A DNA stretch of 58,952 nucleotides from NCBI GenBank assembly GCA_016927125.1, contig JAFGNG010000028.1, forward strand, positions 1 through 58,952, in the 5' to 3' direction. This DNA comes from Planctomycetota bacterium. Its GTDB lineage: Bacteria > Planctomycetota > SZUA-567 > JAFGNG01. The first letter of the stretch is position 1. Every line of letters begins with the position of its first letter. Of this stretch, positions 11,441-45,935 are shown one piece after another. A program made the position numbers and the translations under genes. The notes under the pieces were generated by a model. That model made no database searches. It was not told the DNA's origin and saw only the letters and a program-made list of their open reading frames with translations.

Positions 11441-11590
11441 GACTAACTGAGACTCAACTGGGTGTTTTGCAAGAAATGCAAGCTGCATAAAAAAACTATA
11501 AAGCAGGCGTAAGTCCCACTTTCCAAATTAGTTATATTGGAGCCACAAGGCCGATTCGTGCTTGTTGACCTGCGGTTTACAAAGCTGCTG
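11441..11590 (-). repeat. Repeat copy A: decayed tRNA-Thr 3' half (11538-11590), degraded terminator hairpin with T-tract, and conserved flank block
   Basis: Hand alignment to 45639-45935. The tRNA-derived part matches at 42/53 positions and the 41-nt flank block (11448-11488) at 38/41. It lacks the TTGGGCG pair. Confidence 0.7.
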
Positions 11591-11653
11591 TCAAATTGCG
11601 GATGATGTATTATTTTCCCCAAACTATTAATTTCTACTAATTCTCCATTAATC

Positions 11654-11683
11654 TTGATTTTTATCTGGAAATCAGGCTATATT
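11654..11683 (+). promoter_or_regulatory. Candidate sigma70 promoter of the TetR-RND operon
   Basis: TTGATT (11654-11659), 18-nt spacer, TATATT (11678-11683). The palindromic operator follows immediately. Confidence 0.4.
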
Positions 11684-11688
11684 ATGCA

Positions 11689-11706
11689 ATACTGACCGGT
11701 CAGTAT
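11689..11706. promoter_or_regulatory. Perfect 18-bp palindrome, probable TetR operator
   Basis: ATACTGACCGGTCAGTAT is its own reverse complement. It sits between the -10 element and the RBS of the TetR gene. Confidence 0.6.
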
Positions 11707-11725
11707 GCGTTTAAGGATTAGAAAA

Positions 11726-12340
11726 ATGAAAACCCAGAATAAGCGTGACCAGATTATCCAGGCGATTGAACCCTTACTCAGCACCCGCAGGTTCCATGAG
11801 ATCACCCTGGATGAGGTGGCCCAGGCTGCAAAAATTGGCAAGGGAACAATTTACCGCTATTTTAAAGATAAAGATGATCTTTTCTTTCATATTGCGACTG
11901 CGGGTTTTGATCAACTCTGCGAATTGCTGGAGGAAAATATCCCCAAGGATTCGCACTTCCAGGAAAAATTAATGGTAGTCTGTACCCAGATAAGTGATTT
12001 TTTCAAGGACCGCAGATCTGTTATCCGGGTAATCCAGGAGCATGAAGGTAGGATGCGATGCTTTCATGGCGAAATGAAGCAGCAATGGGTTGAAAAGCGC
12101 AAGAAGCTGGTGGCCACCGTTGCCGGGATCCTGGAACAGGGCGTTTCTGAAGGAGTTATCAAGCAAGAGCTCCCTACTGAGACCTTAGCGGCACTTCTCC
12201 TGGGGATGATGCGGGCACGGGCGCGAGAATTATCCGAAGACAGGAGTAATAATATCAAGTTATCGGAGATTGTGGATGTATTCCTGTTTGGAGTAGGAAA
12301 TCACGAGCTTTTGCCGAAGACTGTCGGCGGGAAGAAGTAA
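11726..12340 (+). CDS. TetR/AcrR family transcriptional repressor
   Basis: N-terminal HTH (ITLDEVAQAAKIGKGTIYRYFKDKDDLF). I prefer the ATG at 11726 (AAGGA 8 nt upstream) over the track start 11705, which lies inside the operator palindrome. Confidence 0.85.
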   Translation: MKTQNKRDQIIQAIEPLLSTRRFHEITLDEVAQAAKIGKGTIYRYFKDKDDLFFHIATAGFDQLCELLEENIPKDSHFQEKLMVVCTQISDFFKDRRSVIRVIQEHEGRMRCFHGEMKQQWVEKRKKLVATVAGILEQGVSEGVIKQELPTETLAALLLGMMRARARELSEDRSNNIKLSEIVDVFLFGVGNHELLPKTVGGKK

Positions 12341-12393
12341 AAAAGAGATTATCCCTTAAATTGTCGATAAAAAACCTTGGAGGAATGAATTCC

Positions 12394-13620
12394 ATGAGAA
12401 AGATTATTGTTGGTCTTGTACTTGCCTTAATACTCCTAGCTATTGGTTGGCGCATCTTCGAGAATTCAATCACGCAGAATGAAGGCGGCCAAAATTTTCG
12501 CGGCGGCGGAGCTGTAGCTGTCGAGACTGAAACCGTGCGTAAAGTCAATATTGAAGATATCCGCTTGTTTACCGGCACCCTGCTGCCGCAATCCCGATTT
12601 GTAGTAGCTCCCAAGATTGGCGGCCAGCTTGAAGAACTTACGGTACAAATAGGCGATACGGTCAAATCAGGACAACTGATTGCGAAAATCAATGATGATG
12701 AGTACCAGCAGAACGTTCAGCAGTCCAAGGCCGAACTTGAAGTTACCATGGCGGAAGTGGAGCAGGCCGAAGCCCTGTTGAATAATAGCAAACGCGAATA
12801 CGAACGGGTTATCGCCCTCCGAGAGAAAAAAATCACCTCTGAATCCGAATTGGATACAGCTGAATCTGAATATAAAACCCAGTTGGCCAAAAGCAAGGTG
12901 GCACTCTCCCAAAAAGCCCAGAAAGAAGCGGCCCTTAAAGCCGCTGAAGTTCGCCTGTCCTATACGGAGATCTATGCCTCTTGGGATTCCGGCAGTGATC
13001 TCCGCTTTATTGGCGAGAGATTCGTGGATGAAGGCGAAATGCTCACTGCCAACAACCCCCTTGTCAGTATTATCGATATTGACAAGCTGATAGCGGTGAT
13101 CCACGTGATTGAGCGCGATTATCCCCATATCCAGGTAGGCCAGGACACCACGATCAGCACGGACGCTTATCCGGAAGAAACCTTTACCGGGAAAATCATC
13201 CGCATCGCTCCCCTCCTGATGACCGCTTCCCGCCAGGCGCGGGTTGAGATTGAGGTTCCCAATTCCCAGCGACTTTTAAAACCCGGAATGTTTGTGCGGG
13301 TTCAAATCCAGTTTGCCAGGCATGAAAATGCCATTACCGTGCCGCAAAACGCTATAGTACGCCGTAACGGCCAGGATGGCGTCTTCCTGGTCAATAAAGA
13401 AGCAGGGAAGGCTGAGTTTGTGCAAACCAAAATCGGGATTAATAATGGCCAGGTAGTTGAAATTCTGGAGCCTGAAATTTCCGGGGAGGTGGTGGTGCTC
13501 GGGCATCATCTCTTGGTCGATGGCTCTGCAATTCTTTTGCAAAATTCGTCTCCGGAAGCTTCTGAGGAAAAACCAGGAAAGCCTGAGCAGCCACAGAAGC
13601 AGGAAGGAAACCGGCCATGA
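12394..13620 (+). CDS. RND efflux periplasmic adaptor (membrane fusion protein)
   Basis: N-terminal TM or signal sequence, lipoyl and coiled-coil hairpin segments, beta-barrel region. Start chosen at ATG 12394 (GGAGGA 9 nt upstream). Stop overlaps the pump start (ATGA). Confidence 0.85.
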   Translation: MRKIIVGLVLALILLAIGWRIFENSITQNEGGQNFRGGGAVAVETETVRKVNIEDIRLFTGTLLPQSRFVVAPKIGGQLEELTVQIGDTVKSGQLIAKINDDEYQQNVQQSKAELEVTMAEVEQAEALLNNSKREYERVIALREKKITSESELDTAESEYKTQLAKSKVALSQKAQKEAALKAAEVRLSYTEIYASWDSGSDLRFIGERFVDEGEMLTANNPLVSIIDIDKLIAVIHVIERDYPHIQVGQDTTISTDAYPEETFTGKIIRIAPLLMTASRQARVEIEVPNSQRLLKPGMFVRVQIQFARHENAITVPQNAIVRRNGQDGVFLVNKEAGKAEFVQTKIGINNGQVVEILEPEISGEVVVLGHHLLVDGSAILLQNSSPEASEEKPGKPEQPQKQEGNRP

Positions 13621-16600
13621 AACTCGCAAGGTTTTCTGTTCAGCGCCCGGTTTTCACCACCATGGCCACAAGCATTATCCTGATCCTGGGGGGGATTTCG
13701 CTGTGGCGTCTGCCGATCGACCTGATGCCGGATATCACCTATCCCACCTTAAGCGTTTCAACCGGTTATGAGGACGCCAATCCGGAAGAAGTCGAGGAAT
13801 TGATAACCCGCCCGATTGAAGAAGCGTTGAGCGCTGTTCCCGGAGTGGAGGAAATCACTTCGACCTCGTCAGAAGGCTCCAGCAGTGTCCGGATATCATT
13901 TTCCTGGGGAACTGATTTAGATGCAGCCGCTTCCGATATCCGGGATAAAATGGATCGGGTTATTCCCCGCCTGCCTGACGATGCGGATCGTCCGCAACTT
14001 AGAAAATTTGACCTGGCAAGTTTCCCGATCTTGATCTTGGGAGTATCGAGCGATCTTGATCCGCTCCAACTCCGTAAGTTGATTGATGATCAGGTTAAAT
14101 ACCGGGTTGAGAGAATCGCCGGGGTTGCCTCCCTGGATGCCTGGGGCGGTCTGGAAAGAGAAATCCATGTTAATCTCGATATTGATAAGATCAAAGCCCT
14201 GGGGCTCTCTTTGAATCAGATCATGGATCGGATTCGCGCAGGCAATGTGGATTTCCCCGCCGGCACTATCGAAAAGGGCTATCTTGATATCCGGGTCCGC
14301 ACCCCGGGCACCTATGCCAATCTGCAAGAACTGCGCGACACCGTGATTATGATCCGCGAGGGCGTGCCGGTGCAGTTGAGCGATGTTGCCTCGGTGGAAG
14401 ACTCCTCGGTAAAAACTACCAGGATTATCCGGGTAAATGGCAAGCCAGGATTACGCCTGGCGGTCAATAAGCAGTCCGGGACCAATACTGTCGAAGTGGC
14501 CAAAGCCGTGCTGGCAGAGATGCAGAGGATCAACCGGGATATCCCCCAGATTGAAATCACCCCGATTATCGACAGCTCGGAATATATTGAAAAATCAGTC
14601 AATAACATCAGCCGCGCCGCGGTTTACGGGGGCGGGTTGGCAGTCCTGGTGCTGCTGCTGTTTTTAAGGAACCTGCGCAGCACCGCGATTATCACCGTTT
14701 CCATTCCGGTTTCGATTATCGCCACCTTCATGATGATTTACTTCGGGGGATTCACTCTCAACATCATGACCCTGGGCGGATTAGCGCTGGGAGTCGGGAT
14801 GTTGATGGACAACTCGATTGTGGTTCTGGAAAACATTACCCGCCTGCGTGACAGCGGTTATGAAAAAGAAGCCGCGGCCGTGGAAGGCTCGGAAGAAGTA
14901 ACCTCTGCTATTATCGCTGGGACCCTTACCACCGTGGCGGTTTTCCTCCCCTTGATTTTTGTGCGTGGCATGGCGGGAGTCATGTTTAAACAATTGTCAC
15001 TGGTAATTGGTTTCTCCCTGCTGTGCTCGCTGGCCGCGGCAATTTCTCTGGTTCCGATGCTGGCTTCAAAACTTATCCATCCCACTACCCTCGGCAACAG
15101 CGAGCATGAAACCTGGGGGCATAAGATCTTCCGCCTCAGCGCTAAAATTTTTATTGAAATGGAAAAAACCTATAAAGAATTGCTGCATTTTGCCATTCAT
15201 CACCGAGCCATAATAATCATTTCCGGGGTGTTGCTGTTAGCGGGATCCCTGGCGCTGATTCCTTTTATTGGCTCCGAGCTTATGCCGGTTACCGATGAGG
15301 GGGAAGTCCGGATTAATGCGGAAATGGAAGTCGGCACCCGGGTTGATTTATTGGCCGAAAAGTTTGCCGAGATTGACCGGATCGTCCGGGTAGAAACTCC
15401 CGAAGTCCTCTATACAACCAAATCTCTTGGCGGTTCCAATTGGCGCTCCTCCGGCGGCCACTCTGGTGATATGCGGATCTCGTTGGTACCCCAAAAAGAG
15501 CGCACCCGCACCAGTGAAGAAATCGCCGAAGTTTTACGGAAAAAACTCGCTAACCTCCCGGGAGTGAAGGTCAGGGTACGAGCCGGGCAAGGTTTATTCA
15601 TTATGCGGATGGCAACCAGCGGAGGTGAAAGAATCGGAATCGAAATCCGAGGCTATGACTTCGATACTGCCGATGCCCTCGCCCAGCAGGTAGCCCAGGT
15701 GGCCCAGGAAGTGGAAGGGGTTACCGATACCAGGATCAGCCGTGAATCAGGCAGCCCGGAAAGGACCGTGGTCATCGACCGCAAGAAAGCGGCGGACATG
15801 AAATTGACGGTCTCCGAAATCGCAGAGGCCTTGCGCACGGTTTTGGCCGGCACCTCAGCGGGTAACTTCCGGGAAATGGGCGATGAATACCGTATTCTGG
15901 TCAAGGTTAAAGACGCTGACAAGATGCGCCTGGAGGACATCCTGGATTTAACTATAACTAATTCCGACAATGTCCCGGTGGTCTTGCGCAATGTGATTGC
16001 CATGAAGCCCCGCAGCGGCCCGGTTACGATTCAGCGAAAGGATCAGGAACGGATCGTCAGCGTCGATGTCAATATCAGCCAACGGGACATGGGATCAATT
16101 ATTGCTGACATCCGCGAGCGGTTGCAGACCGTGACTGTCCCGGCCGGGTTCAGCATAGTCTTCGGGGGAGATTATGAAGAACAGCAGAAAGCCTTTTATG
16201 AATTGCTGATGAGTTTTATCCTAGCATTAGTCCTGGTTTACATGGTAATGGCCTGCCAGTTTGAATCCCTGCGCGATCCCTTTGTGGTGATGTTCTCCGT
16301 ACCGCTGGCAGCCATCGGGGTAATCCTGATGTTGCTCTTAACCAACACCACCTTCAATGTCCAGACCTTCATCGGCTGCATTATGCTTGGTGGCATCGTA
16401 GTTAACAATGCGATCCTGCTGGTCGACCACACCAATCTCCTGCGCCGCCGCGACAAGCTGCCGATTAATGAAGCGATTGAAGAAGCGGGACGCCGCAGAC
16501 TGCGTCCGATCTTGATGACCGCTTTTACCACCACCCTGGGATTGATGCCGCTGGCCCTGGGTGTCGGCGAAGGCGGTGAAGCCCAGGCGCCGATGGCGCG

Positions 16601-16715
16601 GGCGGTAATCGGAGGGCTCTTGAGCTCAACCTTCATAACTCTTCTCTTTGTACCGGTGGTGTATTCCTTCTTTGAAAAGCGAATGTCCCATCCCCAGGAA
16701 ACCGGCGAGCTCTAA
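13617..16715 (+). CDS. RND efflux permease (AcrB/HAE-type, 12 TM)
   Basis: 1032 aa with the typical N-terminus (RPVFTTMATSIILILGGISL..LPIDLMPDIT), two large periplasmic loops, and conserved TM4/TM10-type segments. Confidence 0.9.
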   Translation: MKLARFSVQRPVFTTMATSIILILGGISLWRLPIDLMPDITYPTLSVSTGYEDANPEEVEELITRPIEEALSAVPGVEEITSTSSEGSSSVRISFSWGTDLDAAASDIRDKMDRVIPRLPDDADRPQLRKFDLASFPILILGVSSDLDPLQLRKLIDDQVKYRVERIAGVASLDAWGGLEREIHVNLDIDKIKALGLSLNQIMDRIRAGNVDFPAGTIEKGYLDIRVRTPGTYANLQELRDTVIMIREGVPVQLSDVASVEDSSVKTTRIIRVNGKPGLRLAVNKQSGTNTVEVAKAVLAEMQRINRDIPQIEITPIIDSSEYIEKSVNNISRAAVYGGGLAVLVLLLFLRNLRSTAIITVSIPVSIIATFMMIYFGGFTLNIMTLGGLALGVGMLMDNSIVVLENITRLRDSGYEKEAAAVEGSEEVTSAIIAGTLTTVAVFLPLIFVRGMAGVMFKQLSLVIGFSLLCSLAAAISLVPMLASKLIHPTTLGNSEHETWGHKIFRLSAKIFIEMEKTYKELLHFAIHHRAIIIISGVLLLAGSLALIPFIGSELMPVTDEGEVRINAEMEVGTRVDLLAEKFAEIDRIVRVETPEVLYTTKSLGGSNWRSSGGHSGDMRISLVPQKERTRTSEEIAEVLRKKLANLPGVKVRVRAGQGLFIMRMATSGGERIGIEIRGYDFDTADALAQQVAQVAQEVEGVTDTRISRESGSPERTVVIDRKKAADMKLTVSEIAEALRTVLAGTSAGNFREMGDEYRILVKVKDADKMRLEDILDLTITNSDNVPVVLRNVIAMKPRSGPVTIQRKDQERIVSVDVNISQRDMGSIIADIRERLQTVTVPAGFSIVFGGDYEEQQKAFYELLMSFILALVLVYMVMACQFESLRDPFVVMFSVPLAAIGVILMLLLTNTTFNVQTFIGCIMLGGIVVNNAILLVDHTNLLRRRDKLPINEAIEEAGRRRLRPILMTAFTTTLGLMPLALGVGEGGEAQAPMARAVIGGLLSSTFITLLFVPVVYSFFEKRMSHPQETGEL

Positions 16716-16729
16716 AAAGGATTTAATGC

Positions 16730-18373
16730 ATGGTTAATCGCGGCAAGTTTGATCTACTCATGGGTTATCTTTTCCCGCTATGTCTTTGCCTGCTGCTGCC
16801 GGCCTGCAATTTTTCAGGCTTCGCAAATGATGAAGAGCAAGCCGACCGCTCGCGTCCGGCCGCGAAGGTAAGCACCGAACCCGAAGAGGATTCGCAGGTA
16901 TCTCTGTCTGCAGAAAATACCGGCAAGGCAACCCCGGAGATTTCAGAATCCGAACCTCTTCGGCTCACCCTGCAGGAGGCGATTCTGCAGTCACTTGATA
17001 ATAATGCCGCTTTCCAGGTTGACAGGCTGACCCCGGCCCTGCAACGGACCTATGAGACTGAGGAACGCGCCGAGTTCGATCCTGTACTTTCCGGGGAATT
17101 TTCCAAAACTCGCGCGAAGACCAGCGAAGATGTCAGAGGCCAGGCCGATGATGAGGTGGCCAGCGCAACCTCCACCGGGGGCGCTCTCTCTCTTGAAACT
17201 TTACTGCCCACCGGGACCACGCTCGGCCTTGAGGCCGGCAGGACCAATTCCCGTGAGGACGGTTTTACCAGTGATACCGATACCCAGGCAAACCAGTATG
17301 GCATCAATATTACCCAGCCCCTGCTAAGAAGCTTCGGCCCCAGGGTGAATCTTGCCAATTTGCGTAAAGCAAAGCTGGATACACGCATCTCCCAATATGA
17401 ATTGCAGGGCCTGGCGGAAGCGCTGGTAGCGGAGGTCGAAAAAACCTACTGGGATTACGTGCTGGCCGAGAGGCAAATAGAAATTTATACCGATTCGCTC
17501 GAGATTGCCGAGCAATATATCAATGAAATTAAAGAACGGATTAACATCGGCAAGCTGGCTGAAACTGAACTTGCGGCTGCGGAAGCGGAAGTGGCCAGAC
17601 GGCGTGAAGACTTGATCAACGCCAATAGTAACTTTGCCAACGTCCGCCTGCTCTTTATCCGGCTTTTAAACCCTGGCGGCAGTAACCGCTGGACGCGGGA
17701 GCTCGAGATCCTTGATAAACCTCTGGCCGCTCCCCTGGAACTTGGGGATGTAGAAACCCGGGTTCAAAAAGCCTTGGCTTTGCGTCCGGAAATTAACGAG
17801 GCCCTTCTCAGAATTGAGAAAGGCGACCTGGAAATCATTCGAACCCGCAACGGTCTTCTTCCTAAGCTCGATCTCTTTATCCGTCTCGGTAATACCTCTT
17901 ACTCGGAAACCTTCTCCTCCAAAAATAATCTCGACGGCAAGGAGTATGCATATGAAATCGGGCTGCAGTTTGAATACGCCCTCGGCAACCGTGCCAAGAA
18001 AGCGGAACACGAGCGCGCCCTGTTGAGCGTTGAGCAGGCCAAAGAAATGTTGAATAATCTCCAAGGGCTTGTGCAGGTCGATGTGCGTTCGGCTTATATC
18101 GAGGTCGAGCGTTTCCGGGAACAAACCGAAGCCACTAAGGCGACGAGAAAACTTCGGGAAGAGGCTCTGCGCGTGGAAAACGAAAAATTTCGGGTAGGAA
18201 AGTCCACTGCCTTCCTCGTAGCCCAGGCGAGTAGGGATCTCGTCGCCAGCAGGATTAGCGAGGTTGAGGCCGTGGTCAATCATCTCAAGGCGCAGGTGGA
18301 TTTCTTCCGCCTGGAAAGTTCCCTCTTAGAGCGCCGGGGGATTGTAATTCCTGAGATAGAAACGGCCAAATAA
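16730..18373 (+). CDS. TolC-family outer membrane factor lipoprotein
   Basis: 547 aa, lipobox LLPAC, duplicated OEP-type helical repeats. Last gene of the TetR-RND operon. Confidence 0.85.
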   Translation: MVNRGKFDLLMGYLFPLCLCLLLPACNFSGFANDEEQADRSRPAAKVSTEPEEDSQVSLSAENTGKATPEISESEPLRLTLQEAILQSLDNNAAFQVDRLTPALQRTYETEERAEFDPVLSGEFSKTRAKTSEDVRGQADDEVASATSTGGALSLETLLPTGTTLGLEAGRTNSREDGFTSDTDTQANQYGINITQPLLRSFGPRVNLANLRKAKLDTRISQYELQGLAEALVAEVEKTYWDYVLAERQIEIYTDSLEIAEQYINEIKERINIGKLAETELAAAEAEVARRREDLINANSNFANVRLLFIRLLNPGGSNRWTRELEILDKPLAAPLELGDVETRVQKALALRPEINEALLRIEKGDLEIIRTRNGLLPKLDLFIRLGNTSYSETFSSKNNLDGKEYAYEIGLQFEYALGNRAKKAEHERALLSVEQAKEMLNNLQGLVQVDVRSAYIEVERFREQTEATKATRKLREEALRVENEKFRVGKSTAFLVAQASRDLVASRISEVEAVVNHLKAQVDFFRLESSLLERRGIVIPEIETAK

Positions 18374-18490
18374 TAATACCGCCCCCCCCCTTCTCCCTCA
18401 TCACTCCTGCCCAGTGAGATTCTATGAGATGAGCTGAGGCTGACCTGACCGCTTACCGGAGAGCTAAGCTTTTTACTAAAACCATAAAAT

Positions 18491-18519
18491 AAAGGCGGCC
18501 TCATTCAGAAGCCGCCTTT
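18491..18519. terminator. Hairpin terminator between convergent genes
   Basis: AAAGGCGGC, an 11-nt loop, then GCCGCCTTT. On the minus strand it is followed by ATTTTATGG, so it best serves the 2567-aa gene. Confidence 0.55.
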
Positions 18520-18557
18520 ATCAAAACCATTAATCCTAAGAAAAGATATCCTTCTAC

Positions 18558-31163: not shown

Positions 31164-31281
31164 GGTTATTCTCCATCTGCCGGACAATAACTAATTTTAA
31201 TAAGATAGAAGTTCTCAATAAATAAAGGAACGGTGTCTGCCAAATATACCTAAGCAGCGATTCCAATCAAGTTGTAATGAC

Positions 31282-31310: not shown

Positions 31311-31411
31311 ATTAAACACAAGATTTTAATTTTATGTCTAACAACAGGATCTAACAGATTTTCAATGAATATATTATCCTTGGTATTCTTCAAAATTTCA
31401 TGTAGTGATGA

Positions 31412-31615
31412 GTTGGGCGTCCAGTTGGGCGGAACTGGGGAGACTTCCTGAGACTCTGTGAGACTACATGAGACTGAACTGGGGGTTTTGCAATTTACGC
31501 AAGAGGCTTGAAAACAGCTGGATAAAAGGTGTAACTTACACTATTCAGATTAGTTATATTGGAGCCACAAAGCCGATTCGCGCCTGGTGACAGACGGTTT
31601 ACAAACCGGTCGGCC
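31412..31615 (-). repeat. Repeat copy C: decayed tRNA-Thr 3' half (31560-31615), hairpin (31518-31548, one mismatch on minus), TGAGAC x4, TTGGGCG x2
   Basis: Same order and orientation as 45639-45935. Four GAGAC boxes sit at exact 10-bp spacing (31440-31474). GTTGGGCG occurs at 31412-31419 and 31424-31431. Confidence 0.75.
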
Positions 31616-31789
31616 AAATTCGATGACTTTTTGTTAAACAGAAGACGGTATGAATATCTATTTATTTATGGGTGTTTGAGTGGAGGTTCTGTTTATGTGT
31701 ATATTGATTTTTTGATTGTAATTCTGCTGTCATCCCTTAAGCATAACGTAAATTCCCTGTTAGAGATTTTATCCCGCTTTTAACTTAAA

Positions 31790-31817
31790 TTGCATTAATC
31801 TATATTCTGAGTATAAT
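31790..31817 (+). promoter_or_regulatory. Candidate sigma70 promoter of the MMPL/LolA-like/barrel cluster
   Basis: TTGCAT (31790-31795), 16-nt spacer, TATAAT (31812-31817). A GATAAAA-GGCCG-TTTTATC inverted repeat follows just downstream. Confidence 0.4.
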
Positions 31818-31912
31818 CAGTCAGATAAAAGGCCGTTTTATCAGTAGTTGTTACCTTGGTATTTTCACCCCCAAATCTTAACTTTTGGGATTAAGCAAGC
31901 AAGGGATTGATT

Positions 31913-34714: not shown

Positions 34715-34740
34715 GAATACACTTTACTTAGGAGATGATT

Positions 34741-35604: not shown

Positions 35605-35625
35605 GAGACTTAAGGTATAGCAAAT

Positions 35626-37101: not shown

Positions 37102-37363
37102 CCAGACAAATTAATCTTAATTTGTTTGTCATGTTTAATTCAATAAAGATTTGCTCAACTGTTTAAACAATCATTTTTGTTGAGATCCGTAGATACCACA
37201 TGGGATGTTCTCTTGGGAGGAATTGGGGCTTAAATAGAGTATGAATCGTAAGCAAAAGCATTTGTAGAGTCATGGAAAATAAGAATCCCTCCGCAGCATT
37301 CTCTTTAGAGGTGCTCTCTTTATCGGGGGGCCCAACTATTCATCCGCTCTGCTTATAATAAAG

Positions 37364-37870
37364 TTACTTCCCGTTTTTCCTGGTGGTCGTAAAGAGGTCA
37401 TAAAGCACCGGGATCAGCACCAGGGTAAATACGCCGGAAATAAAGATCCCGCCAATTGACGCAACTCCAACGCCATTGCGCATCTCGGCGCCAATCCCTC
37501 GTCCGAAAGCCAGGGGCATCATTCCCAGTACCGCTGCCATGGTAATCATGACAATGGGACGGAAGGGTTCGCAGGTGGCGCTGATCATAGCTTTGTGGCG
37601 CGGGACACCCTCGGCAATATGTACATTGAACTGGCCCACAATCAGGATCGCGTTATTCACCACAAAGCCCGTCATGATGACAAAGCCCATAATCTCAAAG
37701 ATACCCAGGCTCAATCCGGCAAGGGCGAGGGCCCAGATCATGCCAATCAATGCGAGGGGGAGAGTAATAATCGCCAGGCTGGGTTGCTTATAGGATTCCA
37801 AAATCGCCGCCAGGGTTAAAAAGATCATGATTACCACTATAAGCAGGGCCTCGCCAAGAGCAACCTGTGC
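37364..37870 (-). pseudogene. 5'-truncated remnant of an RND permease (last ~168 codons, TM10-12 region)
   Basis: The frame is open only from 37870 (in-frame TAA at 37871-37873). The translation ...LAAILESYKQP..GFVVNNAILIV..PIVMITMAAVLGMMPLAFG..VLIPVLYDLF matches the C-terminal ~15 percent of pumps such as 13617-16715. No RND sequence lies upstream. Confidence 0.7.
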
Positions 37871-38046
37871 TTAGAAATTCCAGAAGTTTTTCAACTTCTT
37901 CTCTAATAATTTTTTCAAATCATAGCCCTTGAATTTTAGCCGCAGTAAATCTTTTTAAAATTATAAACACAACAAGCTAGTTAGGCACAAAGTTTTATAT
38001 TAAATAAACCATCCCATATAAGTTTTAACCCACAGAGAGTTTTAAA

Positions 38047-38074
38047 TTGACTATATGCGACTAGTTAATACTAT
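38047..38074 (+). promoter_or_regulatory. Candidate sigma70 promoter of the Cu/Ag-type RND operon
   Basis: TTGACT (38047-38052), 16-nt spacer, TACTAT (38069-38074), 40 nt before the ATG at 38114. Confidence 0.35.
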
Positions 38075-38113
38075 TTAACTCGGTGTTGAATAATTTTTTC
38101 CGGAGAAAAGCTG

Positions 38114-39514
38114 ATGCCGAAAAGTTGCTTTGCACTTTTTGTTATTGTTACGGGATGCCTTCTTTTCGCGGGCTGCGGCAGTGACCTGGAACGCGATGCC
38201 CGGCATGACATGCAGGCAGAGGCGCAGGTAATCAATCTCCAAGAAGGGCAATTCGGAAAGCCAGTTGCCATTAACATTCTATTGAGTGACAATCCCGATC
38301 TATCTGAATACTTGCGCTATGCCGCGATTCATAACCATGATCTCCGGGCCGCCTTTTATGAGTGGCAGGCAGCCCTGGAAAAGGTTCCCCAGGCACAGGC
38401 ACTGCCTGATCCGAAGCTAAGTTATACAAATTATATAGAAGAGGTGGAAACCCGGGTCGGCCCTCAGAAAAACCGTTATATGCTGATGCAGATGTTGCCT
38501 TGGCCGACCAAGATAACCGGCAAGTCCGACCTGGCCCTGCGCCAAGCTTTGGTTCAGCAATATGTCTATGAAACGAAAAAGCTTGCCTTGTTCTATCAAG
38601 TAAAAAAAGCATACTACGAGTACTATTACCTTCATAAATCCATCCAGGTGATTAACGAGAATATCCAGCTCCTGCAAAGTATTGATGAAAGCTTACAGAC
38701 TAAATACAAAACTGGCAGCGTGGATAATCACACACTGCTCCAAACCCAGGTAGAACTGGGTAAGCTTGAGGATCACCGGGAAAGCTTGCAGGCTTTACAG
38801 GCAGTGATGGCTTCGCGCTTGAATGCCGCCCTCGGAAGGAGTGTCGGCCTCCCCTTGCCGTGGCCCGTGGTAATTGAGAAAGCTCCTCGCAGCCTTGTAG
38901 AGGAGGAAATCCTGGCAAGCCTGTTGCAGGATAATCCCGGCTTGCAGGCTGCAAGAGAAAAAATACATGCTGCTGATGCCGGCGTAAGCTTGGCACATGC
39001 CGAATACTTCCCGGATTTTGGCCTTGGCGCGTCCGTGATTGAAACTGACCGCCGGACCGACATGGATCCTAATGACAACGGCAAAGATCCGGTGATGCTT
39101 ACCCTGGAACTCTCCCTACCGCTCTGGTGGAACAAGTACAACGCCGGGATGCGCGAGGCTGAAGCCAGGCGGAATGCCGCCCGGGAGGAGCTGGAAGCAA
39201 AGACCCTCATGCTCTCTTCAGATCTGCAGCTTGCTTTCTACAATTATCAGGACGCAAACCGCAGGCAAAAGTTCTTCCAGGACACACTAATACCTAAGGC
39301 GGAGCAGGCGCTGGCCTCGGCCCAGACCGCGTTTGCAACTGGCGAAACCAGCTTCACGGATCTGATTAATGCTGAACGCAACCTGCTTGAACTTCGCCTG
39401 ATGGTCGAACGAGCGCTGGTTGACAACCGCATTCACTTGGCAGAACTTGAAAAGCTGGCGGGGAGGAATTTACGCTTGGCTGCCGATACTGATGTTGCAA
39501 CTGAATCAGATTAG
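38114..39514 (+). CDS. TolC/CusC-family outer membrane factor lipoprotein
   Basis: 466 aa, lipobox LFAGC, OEP-type duplicated helical repeats. First gene of a three-gene RND operon. Confidence 0.85.
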   Translation: MPKSCFALFVIVTGCLLFAGCGSDLERDARHDMQAEAQVINLQEGQFGKPVAINILLSDNPDLSEYLRYAAIHNHDLRAAFYEWQAALEKVPQAQALPDPKLSYTNYIEEVETRVGPQKNRYMLMQMLPWPTKITGKSDLALRQALVQQYVYETKKLALFYQVKKAYYEYYYLHKSIQVINENIQLLQSIDESLQTKYKTGSVDNHTLLQTQVELGKLEDHRESLQALQAVMASRLNAALGRSVGLPLPWPVVIEKAPRSLVEEEILASLLQDNPGLQAAREKIHAADAGVSLAHAEYFPDFGLGASVIETDRRTDMDPNDNGKDPVMLTLELSLPLWWNKYNAGMREAEARRNAAREELEAKTLMLSSDLQLAFYNYQDANRRQKFFQDTLIPKAEQALASAQTAFATGETSFTDLINAERNLLELRLMVERALVDNRIHLAELEKLAGRNLRLAADTDVATESD

Positions 39515-39595
39515 TAAGCATTTGGATTGATTCCTATTATCCCCTCGCCTGAACATTCTCGCCCACCTCAACCTAAGGGGAAAAGGAGATCTATC

Positions 39596-41629
39596 ATGGA
39601 TTCATCAAAACCTCAGCCAAAACCCAATAGACTGCTAAAAAAAATTATCGTTGGCATCCTGCTTATTTTTCTGATCTGGATGATCACCGGCAGGCATTCA
39701 AAATCCCCTGACAATGATACTTCGCCTGTAGGGACAGAGCAAACTGCCAAAGCCACTGTCTGGACCTGTGCAATGCATCCCCAAATCCGGCAGCCAGAAC
39801 CCGGGAGGTGCCCGATCTGCGCAATGGCACTCATTCCCGCTGGCGGAGAAGAAGCCGAAGGACTCGGCCCCCGGATGATGAGCATTTCGGAAGAGTCGAT
39901 AAGACTGGCTGAAATCCAGATGCAACCGGTGGAGCGTCGATTTGTCGATCTGGAGATCCCACTGGTTGGTAAAATCGATTACGATGAAACCCGGGTTAAA
40001 ACCATCTCCTCCTGGGTGCCGGGTAGGCTGGAGCGCCTCTTTGTCGATTATACCGGCATTCCGGTCAAAGAGGGCGATCACCTCGTGGAGATTTACAGCC
40101 CGGAACTCTATAGCGGACAGGAAGAATTGTTGCAGGCAATCAAATCCCTGGAAAAACTTCAGGAGAGCAGTAGCAAGCTGGTCAAGGAATCTACTGAAAA
40201 AAACATCGCTGCCGCCCGGGAAAAATTGAAACTTCTGGGATTAAATCCGGAGCAGATCCAGGAAATTGAAACAAGCCGAACCCCGTCCGCAACGGTGGAG
40301 ATCGATGCTCCCCTTGGCGGCGTAGTGATTAAAAAAATCGCGGAACAAGGGGCGTATGTCAAAACCGGAACCCCGATCTATCAACTGGCGGATCTCTCCA
40401 CTCTCTGGGTTAAACTCAATGCCTATGAGAGCGATGTCGCGCGACTGAGATACGGCCAGGAGGTTGAAATCCTTACCGAAGCCTACGGCGACCGAATCTT
40501 TCCCGGCTGGATTTCTTTTATTGACCCGATTTTAAATCCCAAGACCCGGACGGTTGAGGTTCGGGTTGTGGTTAATAATTCTGACGGCCTGCTGAGGCCG
40601 AATATGTTCGCGAAAGCAAAGGTTAAGGTGCGCCTGGGAGAAAATGAGGAGGTCGTAACCCGTAACCTCCAGGGAAAATGGATTTCTCCAATGCATCCGG
40701 AGGTGATCAAGGATCATCCCGGCAAATGCGATGTCTGCGGGATGGATCTGGTTAAGGCCGAAGACTTAGGATATAAAGACACCAGTAAAATTCAACCCGC
40801 GCTGGTGGCGCCGGCCTCAGCCGTCCTGACCACCGGCGAGAGAGCTATTGTATATGTGCAGGTGCCGGGAAAGGAAAAACCGACATTTCAAGGTGTTGAA
40901 ATCAAGGTTGGCGCAAAAGCGGGAGATTATTATCTCGTCAACTCCGGGCTCACTGAGGGGCAAAATGTTGTCACCAACGGGAATTTTAAGATCGACTCCG
41001 CCCTGCAGTTGATGGCAAAACCCAGCATGATGGATCCGCAAGGCGAAGGCTCTGCACCCATGGAGCATGTACACCAGCAAAGCAACGCAATTCTTTCCAG
41101 GCTCCCGGAAGAGCTCTCAGTCACCCTGGAAGAACCCCAGAGGGCCGCTGGGATATCTGATATATCAGCAGCCTTCCGCCAGCAGCTCCAGCCGCTCTAT
41201 GACAACTACTTGAAATGCCAGCAAGCCCTTGCCGCTGATAACGAACAGGAGGCCAGGCAGGCGATTGAAGCGATGGTTAACGCCTTGGGCAGAATCGACA
41301 TGGAGCTGGTTAAAGGCGAGGCTCATATGCAATGGATGACGCTCTCCAGCAAACTGCGGGAGATCCTGGAACAAGCCAATAAAACCTCCGGGATTGTGGA
41401 GTTGCGCAAATACTTCATTACGTTGAGCAAACTCGTAATTAATCTGGAAAAAACCTTCGGGCACATCGGCGAACAGGCCCACAGTATCGCCTTCTGTCCC
41501 ATGGCAGACAGCAATAAGGGTGCAGAATGGCTGCAAATTGGAGATACGATTAATAATCCCTACTACGGCACGGTAATGCTGCGCTGCGGGGAAATCCGCC
41601 AGACAATTCCGGCACAGAAAACAAAGTAA
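39596..41629 (+). CDS. CusB-like RND adaptor with two Cys-rich heavy-metal-binding motifs and a DUF3347-like C-terminal domain
   Basis: Start at ATG 39596 (AAGGAG 7 nt upstream). Motifs: WTCAMHPQIRQPEPGRCPICAMAL and WISPMHPEVIKDHPGKCDVCGMDL. A membrane-fusion core lies between and after them. The helical C-terminal ~160 aa ends in ...FCPMADSNKGAEWLQ. Confidence 0.8.
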   Translation: MDSSKPQPKPNRLLKKIIVGILLIFLIWMITGRHSKSPDNDTSPVGTEQTAKATVWTCAMHPQIRQPEPGRCPICAMALIPAGGEEAEGLGPRMMSISEESIRLAEIQMQPVERRFVDLEIPLVGKIDYDETRVKTISSWVPGRLERLFVDYTGIPVKEGDHLVEIYSPELYSGQEELLQAIKSLEKLQESSSKLVKESTEKNIAAAREKLKLLGLNPEQIQEIETSRTPSATVEIDAPLGGVVIKKIAEQGAYVKTGTPIYQLADLSTLWVKLNAYESDVARLRYGQEVEILTEAYGDRIFPGWISFIDPILNPKTRTVEVRVVVNNSDGLLRPNMFAKAKVKVRLGENEEVVTRNLQGKWISPMHPEVIKDHPGKCDVCGMDLVKAEDLGYKDTSKIQPALVAPASAVLTTGERAIVYVQVPGKEKPTFQGVEIKVGAKAGDYYLVNSGLTEGQNVVTNGNFKIDSALQLMAKPSMMDPQGEGSAPMEHVHQQSNAILSRLPEELSVTLEEPQRAAGISDISAAFRQQLQPLYDNYLKCQQALAADNEQEARQAIEAMVNALGRIDMELVKGEAHMQWMTLSSKLREILEQANKTSGIVELRKYFITLSKLVINLEKTFGHIGEQAHSIAFCPMADSNKGAEWLQIGDTINNPYYGTVMLRCGEIRQTIPAQKTK

Positions 41630-41648
41630 TTATAACTCCAAGGAGAAG

Positions 41649-44600
41649 ATGATGGGGCTTCCCGAGAACAATCTATATTCTTCAGGAGATGGCTGGCTTG
41701 CCAGGATTATTGCCTTTTGTTTGCAGAATCGGCTGGTTGTCCTGCTGGCGGTGTTGGCTATGATTTGCTGGGGTTTGATTACTGCACCGTTCGACTGGAA
41801 TTTAAAATTTCTGCCGCGCGATCCGATCGCGGTGGACGCGCTCCCTGATCTCGGTGAAAACCAGCAGATTGTCTTTACTGAATGGCCGGGCCGCTCGCCT
41901 CAGGACATTGAAGACCAGATCACCTATCCCCTAACTTCTGCCCTGCTCGGTATTCCCGGGGTAAAGTCAGTCCGCAGTTCCTCGATGTTCGGCTTTTCCA
42001 ATATCTTCATCATCTTCTCGGAAGATGTAGAGTTTTACTGGTCGCGAACCAGGATTCTAGAAAAGCTTAACTCTCTACCCGCTGGAGCCCTACCGGAAGG
42101 GGTCAAACCCACCATGGGGCCTGACGCCACTCCTTTGGGGCAGGTGTTCTGGTATACCCTTGAGGGACGCGATCCGGAAGGCGCTTCTACCGGAGGCTGG
42201 GATCTGGATGAGCTCCGCAGCATCCAGGACTGGCTGGTACGCTATGAATTGATGGCAGTTCCGGGTGTAGCCGAGGTCGGCTCGATAGGCGGGTTTGTCA
42301 AGGAATACCAGGTAGATGTTGATCCGTATGCGATGATCGCCAAGGGGGTTAACCTTACCCAGGTAATAATGGCGTTAAAAAACAGCAACCTCGATACCGG
42401 CGCAAGGACTATGGAGATAAACCGGGTTGAATATGTGATTCGTGGTCTGGGGCTGGTTAAAAATATTTCTGACCTTGAAGAAGCAGTAGTCACAGAAACT
42501 GATAATATCCCCCTGCGGGTTAAGGATATTGCCCGGGTTAGCCTCGGCCCTGCCCTGCGGCGTGGCGCCCTGGATAAAAGCGGCGCAGAAGCGGTCGGCG
42601 GGGTGGTGGTTGTCCGCTATGGAGCAAACCCCCTGGAAGTGATCCAGTGGGTTAAGGACAAGATCGCTGCCTTCAGCCAAAGCCTTCCCCAAAAGACCGT
42701 ACCTGTCCGCAACAGTGACGGTTCTGTAAGGGAGGCAGTGTCACAGGTTAAGGTGGTTCCTTTCTACGATCGTACCGGCCTCATCCATGAGACCCTCGGC
42801 ACCCTCAACCGCGCGCTGGTGGAGGAGATCCTGGTAACCATCATCGTGGTGGTGGTTATGCTGATGCACTTTGGTAGCTCAATGCTGATTTCTGGTCTCC
42901 TGCCTCTTGCGGTTTTGATGTGCTTCATTGCCATGAAGATTTTCGGTGTTGACGCCAATATTGTGGCGCTCTCGGGGATTGCCATCGCAATCGGGACCAT
43001 GGTCGATATGGGCATTGTCCTCAATGAAAATATTCTTAAACACATGGAGGCAGCAGACAAAGATGCCTCTCCCATACAAACCATCTATCAGGCCACTATT
43101 GAGGTCGGGAGCGCGGTTTTGACCGCGGTTTTGACAACTGTGATCAGCTTCCTGCCCATCTTTACCATGGAAATGGCGGAAGGCAAGCTCTTCAAGCCCC
43201 TGGCTTATACCAAGACCTTCGCGCTGGTGGCATCCCTGATTGTCGCACTCACTATCATCCCCCCGGTAGCGCTGACAATTTTCCGGAAAAGGAAAAAACT
43301 AAGCAAATATGCTTTCATATTAATTGAATTACTCTTTCCTGTAGCGCTTTACACGCTTTACTTTTTAGAGAGTTGGTTACTCTTTGTAATTCTGATTCTT
43401 CTTGCGATATACCTAATTATTCAAGGATGGCTCCCTGAAAAGGTGCGCTCTATCCTGCGTCGCACCGCAAACTACCTTGCCGTTGCTGTGGTGGCAGTCT
43501 TTTTAACCAGCAGGTGGCAGCCTCTGGGAATTGAGCATGGGGTGGTTCGCAACCTAATCTTTGTGGCTGTTATCATCGGCGGATTTTTATTCCTGATCCA
43601 TTTGTTCCATAAAGGTTATCCACAGATGTTGCACTGGTGTTTGGCAAATAAGAGTAAGTTCCTGTTAATTCCCATAATCTTGGTATTATTTGGCGCGACT
43701 ATCTGGCTGGGATTTAATTCGGTCTTCAGCTTTATCCCTGCCATAGGTAATAAAATCGGAATTGGTGAGACCATCCGCCTTTCCAGCCCCTGGGCATGGG
43801 CCAGCCACAGGTTCCCCGGCTTGGGCAAGGAGTTTATGCCGGATTTTGATGAAGGCTCATTTTTATTAATGCCGACAACTATGCCGCACGCTTCAATCGG
43901 TGAGGCTATGGATGTTCTCCAGAAACAGGATATGGCGCTGAATGCCCTCCCCGAGGTCAGCCTGGCAGTAGGGAAAATTGGCAGGGTGGATAGCCCGCTC
44001 GACCCCGCCCCGGTTTCAATGATTGAAACCGTGATTAATTATCATCCCGAGTATTTGGCTGATAGTAGCGGCAAGAAGCTCGCCTTCGTGTATGCTTCCG
44101 ACCAAACCGATCTCTTTAGAAATCCTTCGGGAGACCCAGTAATGGCTCCTGATGGCGAACCTTATACAGTATTAGGTAAGTTTTCCCGGGATGAATCCGG
44201 CGTGTTAATTCCAGATCCTGGAGGGAGTCCCTTCCGGATATGGCGCCCGGTTCTCGACCCGCAGATAAATCCTGGCCGAGAGGAATGGGCCGGAATTAAT
44301 AGTCCGGATGATATCTGGGAGGAAATCCTGCGGGTAACGGAAATCTCCGGCACTACCTCCGCGCCGAAACTGCAGCCGATTGCCGCGCGGCAGGTGATGC
44401 TCCAAAGCGGTATGCGCGCCCCTATGGGGATCAAAATCCTGGGCAAGGGGCAAGCTTCTCTGGAGGATCTCGAAGCGGTTGGATTGGAGTTGGAAAAGTA
44501 TTTACAACAGGTTCCATCAATAAAAGCGAATACTGTCAACGCGGAGCGGGTTGTGGGTAAGCCTTACCTGGAGATCAAAATCGACCGCCTGGCGATTCAG

Positions 44601-45617
44601 CGCTATAACCTGACGGTGGCGGAAGTGCAGAATGTTATTCAGGCGGCAATCGGGGGCATGCCGATCACCACCACGGTGGAAGGGCGTGAGCGTTACCAGG
44701 TTCGGATTCGTTATCAACGTGAACTGAGGGATAGCATTGAAGATCTTGAACGCATCCTGGTTTCCAACCGCAAGGGGTTGCAGGTTCCCCTGAAAGAGCT
44801 TATCGAAGAGCGCAAGATTCAATACCGTCGCGGCCCCCAGTCGATCAAGAGTGAGGATAGCTCGTTGGTAAGCTACGTCCTCTTTGACAAGCAATCTGGG
44901 TATGCTGAGGTGGATGTGGTTAATGCAGCGAGAGAATTTCTGCAAAGCCGGATAGAGGCCGGTGAGCTAATCCTTCCCGCAGGCGTAACTTACAAGTTCG
45001 CTGGAAGTTATGAAAACCAGATCCGCAGTGAAAAAAAGCTGATGGTAGTCCTACCTTTGGCCTTGTTGATAATCTTCTTTATTCTTTATTTCCAGTTTAA
45101 ATCCGGCTCTACCACTCTCTTTGTCTTTTCAGGTATCTTCGTCGCAGCTGCGGGTGGGTTTATTATGCTCTGGCTATATGGGGAAGGCTGGTTTTTAAAT
45201 TTTTCAATTTTCGGAACCAACCTGCGCGACTTGTTCCAGATGCATCCGATCAACCTGAGCGTGGCGATCTGGGTTGGTTTTATCGCCCTCTTCGGCATTG
45301 CCACCGATAACAGCGTAATCATTGCAACTTATCTGGACCAGACCTTTGCCAAACAAAAACCTGCGAGCATTGAGACGATTCGCGAGGCAACTGTTACTGC
45401 GGGAATGCGCCGGATCCGGCCGTGCCTGATGACAACTGCAACCACCATCCTTGCGCTGCTGCCGGTCTTGACCTCTACGGGCCGGGGCGCTGACATCATG
45501 ATCCCAATGGCTATCCCGGTTTTTGGAGGTATGATTCTTACCCTCATTACCGCCTTCATCGTCCCAGTGTTATACTGCGGATTGAAAGAGACGAAGAGTA
45601 AAAACTTATCCCCTTAG
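41649..45617 (+). CDS. CusA/CzcA-type heavy-metal RND permease, unusually long (1322 aa)
   Basis: RND hallmarks are present throughout. There are about 100 extra hydrophobic residues after TM6 and an extended second periplasmic loop compared with ~1040-aa family members. Confidence 0.85.
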   Translation: MMGLPENNLYSSGDGWLARIIAFCLQNRLVVLLAVLAMICWGLITAPFDWNLKFLPRDPIAVDALPDLGENQQIVFTEWPGRSPQDIEDQITYPLTSALLGIPGVKSVRSSSMFGFSNIFIIFSEDVEFYWSRTRILEKLNSLPAGALPEGVKPTMGPDATPLGQVFWYTLEGRDPEGASTGGWDLDELRSIQDWLVRYELMAVPGVAEVGSIGGFVKEYQVDVDPYAMIAKGVNLTQVIMALKNSNLDTGARTMEINRVEYVIRGLGLVKNISDLEEAVVTETDNIPLRVKDIARVSLGPALRRGALDKSGAEAVGGVVVVRYGANPLEVIQWVKDKIAAFSQSLPQKTVPVRNSDGSVREAVSQVKVVPFYDRTGLIHETLGTLNRALVEEILVTIIVVVVMLMHFGSSMLISGLLPLAVLMCFIAMKIFGVDANIVALSGIAIAIGTMVDMGIVLNENILKHMEAADKDASPIQTIYQATIEVGSAVLTAVLTTVISFLPIFTMEMAEGKLFKPLAYTKTFALVASLIVALTIIPPVALTIFRKRKKLSKYAFILIELLFPVALYTLYFLESWLLFVILILLAIYLIIQGWLPEKVRSILRRTANYLAVAVVAVFLTSRWQPLGIEHGVVRNLIFVAVIIGGFLFLIHLFHKGYPQMLHWCLANKSKFLLIPIILVLFGATIWLGFNSVFSFIPAIGNKIGIGETIRLSSPWAWASHRFPGLGKEFMPDFDEGSFLLMPTTMPHASIGEAMDVLQKQDMALNALPEVSLAVGKIGRVDSPLDPAPVSMIETVINYHPEYLADSSGKKLAFVYASDQTDLFRNPSGDPVMAPDGEPYTVLGKFSRDESGVLIPDPGGSPFRIWRPVLDPQINPGREEWAGINSPDDIWEEILRVTEISGTTSAPKLQPIAARQVMLQSGMRAPMGIKILGKGQASLEDLEAVGLELEKYLQQVPSIKANTVNAERVVGKPYLEIKIDRLAIQRYNLTVAEVQNVIQAAIGGMPITTTVEGRERYQVRIRYQRELRDSIEDLERILVSNRKGLQVPLKELIEERKIQYRRGPQSIKSEDSSLVSYVLFDKQSGYAEVDVVNAAREFLQSRIEAGELILPAGVTYKFAGSYENQIRSEKKLMVVLPLALLIIFFILYFQFKSGSTTLFVFSGIFVAAAGGFIMLWLYGEGWFLNFSIFGTNLRDLFQMHPINLSVAIWVGFIALFGIATDNSVIIATYLDQTFAKQKPASIETIREATVTAGMRRIRPCLMTTATTILALLPVLTSTGRGADIMIPMAIPVFGGMILTLITAFIVPVLYCGLKETKSKNLSP

Positions 45618-45638
45618 CCTATTGGGTTTTATCCAAAT

Positions 45639-45859
45639 CCCCTTGGGCGCTCTGTTGGGCGCAACCAGGGATACTCTATGAGACAGCATGAGACTGAACT
45701 GGGTGTTTTGCAAGAAATGCAAGAGGCATGATATTTCAAAGAATGATTCAAAAGCTCTTCAGTGGGATTAGACTTTAAAAAAGCCGTAACTCCAATTTTC
45801 CTATGGCAATAAAGAAACTGGATAGCAGGCGTAAGTCCCACTATCCAGCTTGATTATGA
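45639..45859 (-). repeat. Repeat copy D (reference copy): downstream flank of tRNA-Thr with terminator hairpin, conserved block, TGAGAC x2, TTGGGCG x2
   Basis: Terminator CTGGATAG-N15-CTATCCAG (45818-45848) plus TTTCTTT on the minus strand. TGAGAC at 45679 and 45689. TTGGGCG at 45643 and 45655. It carries a ~90-nt insert (45729-45815) absent from copies A-C. Confidence 0.75.
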
Positions 45860-45935
45860 TGGAGCCACCTACCCGATTCGAACGGGTGACCTGCGGTTTA
45901 CAAAACCGCTGCTCTACCAACTGAGCCAAGGTGGC
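45860..45935 (-). tRNA. tRNA-Thr (anticodon UGU), CCA encoded
   Basis: 76 nt folded by hand: acceptor GCCACCT/AGGTGGC, D arm GCTC-AGTTGGTA-GAGC, anticodon arm GCGGT-TTTGTAA-ACCGC, variable AGGTC, T arm ACCCG-TTCGAAT-CGGGT, discriminator T, CCA. Confidence 0.93.

Follow-up and report, generated by a model that had tools for sequence, protein, structure and literature searches.

An intact tRNA-Thr gene and, downstream of it, three decayed 3'-half copies delimit gene modules in a planctomycete contig: a possible old accretion array without an integrase

Islands integrated into tRNA genes (tDNAs) are mapped by Islander from an intact tDNA together with its cognate displaced fragment; 3760 of 3919 islands have a 3' fragment, 2083 of the 3919 have an anticodon-centred attP, which makes this the commonest class, and only 4 arrays of three or more were found among the 3919 (PMC4383910). 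Integrase-less members of tandem arrays are known as well, as cis-mobilizable elements (CIMEs) and accretion, for example among the ICESt1/ICESt3-related elements of Streptococcus thermophilus, and insertion into a resident element's attachment (att) site is a described route of accretion (PMC5704250). At the ssrA gene of Dehalococcoides many islands stand in tandem, each bounded by a 20-bp direct repeat of the ssrA end with extra conserved nucleotides; most carry a serine recombinase module (DsiB) and strains show presence or absence, and some have no integration module and are thought to be cis-mobilizable or fixed (PMC3146451). Here we analyse the complete 58,952-nt contig JAFGNG010000028.1 of a planctomycete metagenome-assembled genome (MAG), referred to below as the window, in which a tRNA-Thr gene occurs once in intact form and three more times as a truncated, decayed copy of the 3' half with ~130-190 nt of downstream flank, the whole arrayed across 34 kb.

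The locus shares with Islander-type islands an intact tRNA gene and 3' fragments of the same orientation, which start at the anticodon loop and mark the ends of segments, and a cargo of accessory type (efflux, adhesins). It differs from them in that no interval holds an integrase, for which the Islander filter would reject all of them, and in that the repeats are 190-230 nt long, run ~130-190 nt past the tRNA end, are 75-79% identical and share derived states, with no compositional anomaly. Like CIMEs, the segments are bounded by att-type repeats, have no integration or transfer genes and lie in tandem at one target gene, and insertion into a resident att site, as in CIMEs, would explain copies that descend from a pseudo-copy; unlike in CIMEs, the att repeats have degenerated, the host is no firmicute but a planctomycete MAG, and no related functional integrative and conjugative or integrative and mobilizable element is known for the lineage. 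With the ssrA islands of Dehalococcoides the locus has in common that tandem segments downstream of one small-RNA gene are bounded by a direct repeat of the 3' end of that gene, and that conserved nucleotides continue beyond this repeat. Repetitive extragenic palindromes and miniature inverted-repeat transposable elements are likewise short, non-coding, hairpin-bearing intergenic repeats in several copies, whereas the four copies of the present unit, a count that comes from 59 kb only, show no terminal inverted repeats or target duplications and are colinear copies of the parent tRNA locus in one orientation. Integron cassette arrays also consist of ordered gene units separated by a recurring recombination-site-like element beside a fixed anchor, but here intI and attI are absent, the units are multi-gene, 5-15 kb long and of mixed orientation, and the recurring site is tRNA-derived and not an attC hairpin.

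The structure is in our view a somewhat atypical example of a known architecture, that of tDNA att-repeat arrays and integrase-less accreted segments. As an intact tDNA occurs together with cognate 3' fragments of the same orientation that are truncated in common at the anticodon loop, and as integrase-less stacks are documented, the reading that we rank first is that of an old accretion array, built in tandem at tRNA-Thr, whose att repeats are anticodon-centred and which has no integrase today (CIME-like or fixed). We give it a probability of about 0.45, that is, a little short of even odds.

The tRNA-Thr gene and its partial copies

The intact locus, which we call copy D and which anchors the array, is a tRNA-Thr(UGU) gene with an encoded CCA on the minus strand at 45860-45935. 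ARAGORN and Rfam (tRNA model, 69.2 bits) agree on it as the only tRNA gene in the window, and the first-pass annotation, made by eye from the sequence, had placed an intact tRNA-Thr(UGU) there. Its sequence is 96-99% identical to the tRNA-Thr(TGT) of three planctomycete MAGs and 91% identical to that of a fourth. A core 11-mer, TTTGTAAACCG, at 45894-45904 (minus strand) comprises the anticodon loop and the 3' strand of the anticodon stem and is the proposed crossover or identity segment. Downstream of the gene on the same strand lie a terminator hairpin at 45818-45849 (-23.1 kcal/mol, z -4.43), a T-run at 45811-45817, a spacer of ~80 nt between hairpin and block at 45732-45810 that is specific to D and appears as an alignment gap in the other copies, and a flank block at 45636-45731. 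The hairpin had been described as an 8-bp stem with a 15-nt loop, which proved to be wrong: the stem has 13-15 bp and the loop 4 nt. The block of D has a TTGCA-N5-TGCAA palindrome, a motif AAAACACCCAGTT, repeats of GTCTCA that are 10 nt apart and two CGCCCAA 12 nt apart, and its end is 19 nt from the stop codon of a cusA-like gene.

The partial copies, C, B and A, follow downstream of the tRNA gene, and all four copies are colinear and of one orientation. Copy C (31412-31612, minus strand) has its core at 31595-31605, a tRNA-derived part that extends to 31560, a decayed hairpin at 31518-31548 and a block at 31412-31509 in which four AGTCTC(A/C) repeats stand at 10-nt spacing. In copy B (26572-26765, minus strand) the core lies at 26748-26758, the tRNA-derived part runs to 26714, the hairpin at 26672-26702 is intact with a compensatory outer pair, and the block occupies 26572-26665. 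Copy A (11441-11590, minus strand) consists of a core at 11573-11583, a tRNA-derived part to 11538, a decayed hairpin at 11496-11526 and a proximal block at 11448-11488; the distal block, which is kept in B, C and D, is lost in A. Read 5' to 3' on the minus strand, the order is the same in all four: the part of the tRNA that runs from anticodon stem to CCA, then a short trailer, the hairpin with its T-run, and the flank block, made up of ATGCCTCTTGCATTTCTTGCAAAACACCCAGTTCAGTCTCA followed by GTCTCA repeats and then by two CGCCCAA.

The similarity on which the first-pass annotation based three ordered partial units on one strand is significant. Pairwise blastn comparisons among the four regions gave E values of 1e-12 to 1e-28, three motif searches, one of them with the core 9-mer, each found 4 of 4 sites against 0.00 expected, and a profile of the unit run with nhmmer on the window found exactly four copies (E 1e-32 to 1e-66). 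The next matches of the profile were two plus-strand self-matches of the hairpin palindromes of D and B (E 0.013 and 0.1), and the remainder was no better than E = 0.48, so that no fifth copy of the unit is found in the window by this profile. That the partial copies are not tRNA genes was borne out: A, B and C lack the acceptor 5' strand and the D arm, their T arm is disrupted, and they are matched neither by ARAGORN nor by Rfam, even at E <= 5.

Two candidates for a fifth copy were rejected. The first, at 7279-7311, turned out to be the 3' arm of a perfect hairpin of 13 bp that is not related to the unit: an inverted repeat, GATAAAGCGCCCA-N7-TGGGCGCTTTATC, at 7266-7300 downstream of a sigma-fusion gene is likely to be a terminator, and its GGGCG arm gave the spurious match to the distal block of the unit. 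The second, at 18411-18447, is the non-significant match at E = 0.48. It lies in a region (18403-18520, minus strand) between the convergent genes of an outer membrane factor (OMF) and a 2572-aa protein, where a G+C-rich hairpin terminator (~18485-18520) is followed by a CTCA-repeat stretch faintly like the GTCTCA region of the unit, which could be a much-decayed fifth block.

Conservation along the unit

The core 11-mer is identical in all four copies (11 of 11 in every pair), and the left edges of A, B and C fall at the same position of the tRNA, in the anticodon stem/loop. No pair shows significant similarity in the 60 nt left of the core (p 0.05-0.79). The right edges are ragged, A being the shortest, C the next, and B and D reaching equally far. 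By analogy with known tDNA islands, the common left edge is what anticodon-centred integration would leave, the invariant 11-mer would fit likewise, and ragged right edges would be expected where an arm runs into different cargo.

Overall the units are ~75-79% identical (78.8% over 104 positions between D and A), and the identity is uneven along their length. Pairwise values are 100% in the core 11-mer, 63-80% in the rest of the tRNA part, 59-80% in the trailer and hairpin and 78-93% in the proximal 41-nt block. The first-pass annotation had counted 38 of 41 matches in the flank block between D and A and about 42 of 53 in the tRNA part of A; both counts hold (92.7% over 41; 79.2% over 53, measured against the near-identical tRNA of L005, the MAG with the most similar tRNA-Thr), and the better conservation of the flank extends from D-A to all pairs. 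Among the pseudo-copies the proximal block has 100 of 123 positions identical as compared to 167 of 243 in the tRNA part and hairpin (Fisher p = 0.0125, the pairs not being independent).

Compared with D, copies A, B and C have in common a 1-nt insertion in the 5' strand of the T-stem, T54>C, a change in the trailer, two block positions and the lack of the 80-nt spacer. Beyond these shared states the four copies are approximately equidistant, with conflicting groupings. A mosaic 2x2 pattern of informative sites of the attL/attR type was looked for and rejected, as the sites conflict and show no significant clustering after adjacent columns are collapsed.

Two of the copies, D (z -4.4) and B (-19.3 kcal/mol, z -4.2), have a hairpin that makes a strong terminator; in B the outer stem pair C-G of D is replaced by T-A, a compensatory change that had been noticed by eye. 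In A (z 0.0) and C (z -1.3) the hairpin is decayed and folds no better than shuffled sequence. The hairpins of D and B have the stable stem followed by a T-run that is expected of an intrinsic terminator, and those of A and C do not. In the block the arms of the palindrome TTGCA-N5-TGCAA are kept and its loop is variable, the AGTCTCA-type repeats, of which C has four and A, B and D have two or three, follow one another at a spacing of exactly 10 nt, and the two CGCCCAA are 12 nt apart. In attP arms of the lambda type, arm-type sites stand in tandem at ~10-bp spacing, a likeness that serves as a lead and not as a test. From its sequence we infer that the flank block may be an arm region once bound by a recombinase and accessory proteins.

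The core 9-mer TTGTAAACC occurs once more, inverted, at 26788-26796 (plus strand), 31 nt left of the core of B. By chance 0.29 copies are expected in the whole window and this one is the only extra copy in 59 kb. Its position suggests breakage and joining at the core sequence, and it may be a scar left by recombination or may belong to a site. Also to the left of unit B, just past the stop of a 1442-aa adhesin gene, the sequence AATTCCGCCCAACGGGACGG at 26829-26851 (minus strand) resembles the distal block of C at 31418-31440 (20 of 23 positions, pairwise E 0.001); by this likeness the adhesin gene and its upstream spacer are bracketed by a second short direct repeat.

Modules between the repeats and searches in other genomes

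The repeats divide the window into four modules, the genes of which were assigned with Pfam and, in Module 4, also with NCBIfam. Module 1 (31613-45635, mixed strands) holds an MMPL/LolA-like/DUF1302-like operon at 31907-37101 (plus strand), a 5'-truncated RND fragment at 37364-37837 (minus strand) and a cusCBA-like operon at 38114-45617 (plus strand). The RND fragment, 157 aa long and 34% identical to the other RND gene of the window, corresponds to the C-terminal ~150 residues of an AcrB-type pump, has only AT-rich sequence upstream, and marks a truncation or rearrangement breakpoint beside the cusCBA-like operon. Module 2 (26766-31411) consists of one adhesin-like gene with FG-GAP, cadherin and PKD domains at 26859-31187 (minus strand, 1442 aa). 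Module 3 (11591-26571) carries the gene of the 2572-aa FG-GAP/cadherin/dockerin protein at 18558-26276 (minus strand) and a TetR-MFP-RND-OMF operon at 11705-18373 (plus strand). Module 4 (1-11440), which is open-ended at the contig end, contains the gene of an ECF-sigma fusion protein at 7369-11169 (minus strand) and a HlyD/ABC/MacB/OMF export operon of MacAB type at 1856-6863 (minus strand).

The 1442-aa and 2572-aa proteins are paralogues of ~50% aa identity encoded head to tail. In their genes, coding repeats of 165 nt (FG-GAP) and of 303 nt (cadherin-like) form long arrays (19300-20400 and 27260-31040); the repeats are 60-83% identical, both inside a gene and from one gene to the other, and are a substrate for unequal recombination. 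In the sigma-fusion protein (1266 aa) an N-terminal ECF sigma-70 domain (regions 2 and 4) is joined to a long C-terminal part with a CBM9-like domain at its end. Over the final 216 residues this protein shows 50% identity to the C-terminus of a 1554-aa protein encoded at 47602-52266 (minus strand), across the tRNA. The gene adjoining the tRNA (46510-47553), which encodes JXA52_00885, is an orphan with no homologue among 5.8 billion clusters.

The gene content of the contig fits Planctomycetota: the ECF-sigma fusion protein, giant proteins with FG-GAP, cadherin and dockerin domains, several RND, MMPL and MacB export systems, and DUF4838. The source lineage is poorly sampled; the best homologues of the CusA-like and MMPL proteins reach only 65-71% aa identity. 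These nearest relatives keep the MMPL and cus operons in unrelated, non-syntenic contexts free of tRNA genes. The module content looks accessory and rearranged, with a truncated RND gene and with MMPL and cus operons that stand in other contexts in relatives.

The unit itself was searched for in several ways. An exact-motif scan with the block pattern TTGCAAAACNCCCAGTTNNGTCTC gave 0 matches in genome contigs and 0 in metagenome contigs, a pattern specific to the T arm of the pseudo-copies gave 0 matches in metagenome contigs, and unit B had no blastn match among phages and plasmids. A look-up of the TetR protein in an assembly index, made for alternative junctions, gave no record. A looser 17-mer gave 18 matches in viral contigs, none of which extended beyond 17-22 nt, and these were set aside as chance. 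The four planctomycete MAG loci with a single intact tRNA-Thr 91-99% identical to that of D showed no flank similarity, partial copies or adjacent integrase in the stretches examined. In L005, a umuC/umuD-like pair (IMS polymerase and S24 peptidase) and a PD-(D/E)XK-like gene lie at 1020-3484, ~2.5-5 kb downstream of the tRNA, and no integrase was seen in the 8-kb stretch of this locus. The only other assembly with identical sequence is a 2,954-nt Logan contig (SRR13394437), which ends exactly at window position 45897, that is, at tRNA position 39 inside the core 11-mer; the end could reflect related tRNAs that make the k-mer graph branch, or a population that is heterogeneous at the att core.

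Origin of the repeats

In an accretion array the four units would be direct repeats of att type, produced as DNA segments inserted again and again, in the site-specific (Campbell-type) manner, into the 3' half of tRNA-Thr(UGU) or, as an alternative target, into the att site of a segment already resident at tRNA-Thr. Each incoming segment would carry a unit of ~190-230 nt, comprising the tRNA from anticodon stem to CCA, the terminator and a flank of ~100 nt. Strand exchange within the core TTTGTAAACCG or beside it would regenerate a working tRNA and push the truncated unit to the far end of the insert. Repetition of this event would give the array tRNA - Module 1 - C - Module 2 - B - Module 3 - A - Module 4. 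The recombinase would lie outside the contig, and the modules would be fixed fossils or cis-mobilizable elements relying on an integrase elsewhere. Modules 1, 2 and 3 have unit repeats at both ends and no integration or transfer genes, as in the definition of CIMEs; the repeats, however, are only 75-79% identical.

Several observations weigh against this origin. Scans of all open reading frames of at least 100 aa that could be genes with Pfam, NCBIfam and PHROGs found no integrase, excisionase, transposase, tyrosine or serine recombinase, relaxase, transfer or phage gene in the 59 kb, in line with the first-pass annotation, and the intergenic gaps are too short for a recombinase gene or a sizeable remnant; four independent clean losses of a recombinase beside att scars that were kept would be odd. 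The tetranucleotide signatures of the modules correlate with each other and with the 12 kb right of the tRNA at r 0.83-0.94, with the exception of the internally repetitive Module 2, so that module composition is that of the flank and gives no sign of foreign origin. The left (P-arm) sides of the copies share nothing, the repeats are far longer than usual att duplications at an identity of 75-79%, and no homologous unit was found in any collection searched. An 11-column invariant run is not exceptional by itself (shuffle P = 0.15; P = 0.03 together with a 9-column run). Divergence to D does not fall with distance from the tRNA, and C, predicted to be the youngest copy, has the most private changes. 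Since A, B and C share derived states as compared to D, they are not three independent displacements of a working tRNA half, and at least some of them derive from a copy that was dead by then. These shared states fit insertion into a resident att site and not always into the live tRNA. The missing recombinase, the native composition, the unrelated left arms, the divergence of C and the long, 75-79% identical repeats are what limits our confidence. The serial-integration inference of the first-pass annotation is accordingly upheld in part: direct repeats of the tRNA 3' end delimit modules that contain no recombinase, and the mobile origin that it implied is a candidate explanation, with the missing recombinase, the native composition and the shared derived states against it.

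The main rival, unlikely on balance and yet the most credible of the alternatives, is that a single truncated pseudo-unit arose once, by an old insertion or a partial duplication of the tRNA locus, and that segmental or tandem duplication, together with unequal crossing-over, later made two more copies of it in a stretch with many paralogous genes, in which case the modules would never have been mobile and the copies would be neutral relics. This would account for the T-stem insertion, T54>C and the lack of the 80-nt spacer common to A, B and C, as well as for the native composition and the absence of a recombinase, and the decayed hairpins of A and C are in keeping with it. It is also favoured by the gene order, as B and C each precede one of the two head-to-tail adhesin paralogues and the sigma-fusion gene after A has its C-terminal paralogue across the tRNA. 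Against it, similarity ends abruptly at both edges of the unit, and the spacers and the sequence left of the core share nothing. Moreover, a segmental duplication of such age that the adhesins now stand at 50% aa identity would be expected to have wiped out a neutral non-coding piece of 190 nt, yet the units are 75-79% identical; nor does neutral duplication agree with a block that is better kept than the rest of the unit or with the inverted core 9-mer beside B.

The extra conservation of the block keeps alive a second alternative, which we regard as improbable, that the unit and above all its block was co-opted as a cis element, a protein-binding control or insulator cassette before large surface-protein genes, with a hairpin that stops read-through. 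As the first-pass annotation had remarked, A, B and C lie 220-300 nt upstream of large minus-strand genes, the distances being 272, 296 and 225 nt to the starts of 7369-11169, 18558-26276 and 26859-31187, respectively. The proximal block, 78-93% identical with its palindrome and phased direct repeats, has accumulated private changes in similar numbers in all four copies, so that D is not special, and the hairpin of B is maintained by its compensatory change. Nevertheless no minus-strand gene lies downstream of the block of D, whose end is 19 nt away from the stop of the cusA-like gene, a convergent one. No unit stands upstream of 47602-52266, the fourth of the large minus-strand genes, the hairpin is decayed in A and C, and the distal block is gone from A. 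The start codons lie at varying distances from the units, the three unit-to-gene spacers (225-296 nt) have no 7-mer common to all and no conserved promoter or untranslated region, and no consistent promoter-like site was found in the block. The terminator/insulator and control cassette put forward in the first-pass annotation as an alternative to integration consequently fares poorly, in view of the decayed hairpins of A and C, the D block with no gene downstream and the unrelated spacers.

Still less probable is that the units are live recombination sites in a tRNA-anchored cassette array served in trans by a recombinase elsewhere in the genome, where the core and the phased-repeat arm would be used to insert, excise and reshuffle integrase-less cassettes of giant adhesins and efflux operons. 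The conservation of the block in the pseudo-copies and the inverted core by B are compatible with live sites; that two hairpins have decayed, that the units are 75-79% identical and that no related unit was found elsewhere argues against recent activity.

A last proposal concerns the flank only and is compatible with an origin by insertion or by duplication. A plus-strand open frame through the block (45618-45731 in D, 26548-26667 in B, 31452-31511 in C and 11428-11490 in A) reads ...ETELGVLQxxQEA* with the same stop in all four copies and several synonymous differences (ACT/ACC, GGT/GGG, GAG/GAA, GCA/GCT); it extends to NPLGRSxGR in B and D, and in D it directly follows the stop codon of the cusA-like gene, in frame with it. 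The block would then be the 3' end of a lost plus-strand gene converging on the tRNA, and the unit a gene 3' end, a bidirectional terminator and a tRNA 3' half, which is very doubtful, as a profile of the four peptides found no protein family among 1.84 billion representative proteins (one spurious repeat protein), the number of 10-nt repeats (2-4) varies upstream of the last 13 codons and breaks the frame, the variable 'codons' fall in the loop of TTGCA-N5-TGCAA, and the stop sits in the A-run complementary to the terminator T-run, where chance stops are likely.

If the accretion array that we rank first is real, its value is that of a well-delimited example with directly testable excision sites, and no long-standing question is opened by it. 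Such arrays would escape island finders that require an integrase, and tRNA fragments may be handled wrongly by annotation pipelines. On the accretion reading the contig would record how a single tRNA gene in a poorly sampled planctomycete lineage came to have giant surface proteins and efflux systems stacked beside it, and the picture of accretion and CIMEs, drawn mainly from firmicutes, proteobacteria and Dehalococcoides, would extend to Planctomycetota.

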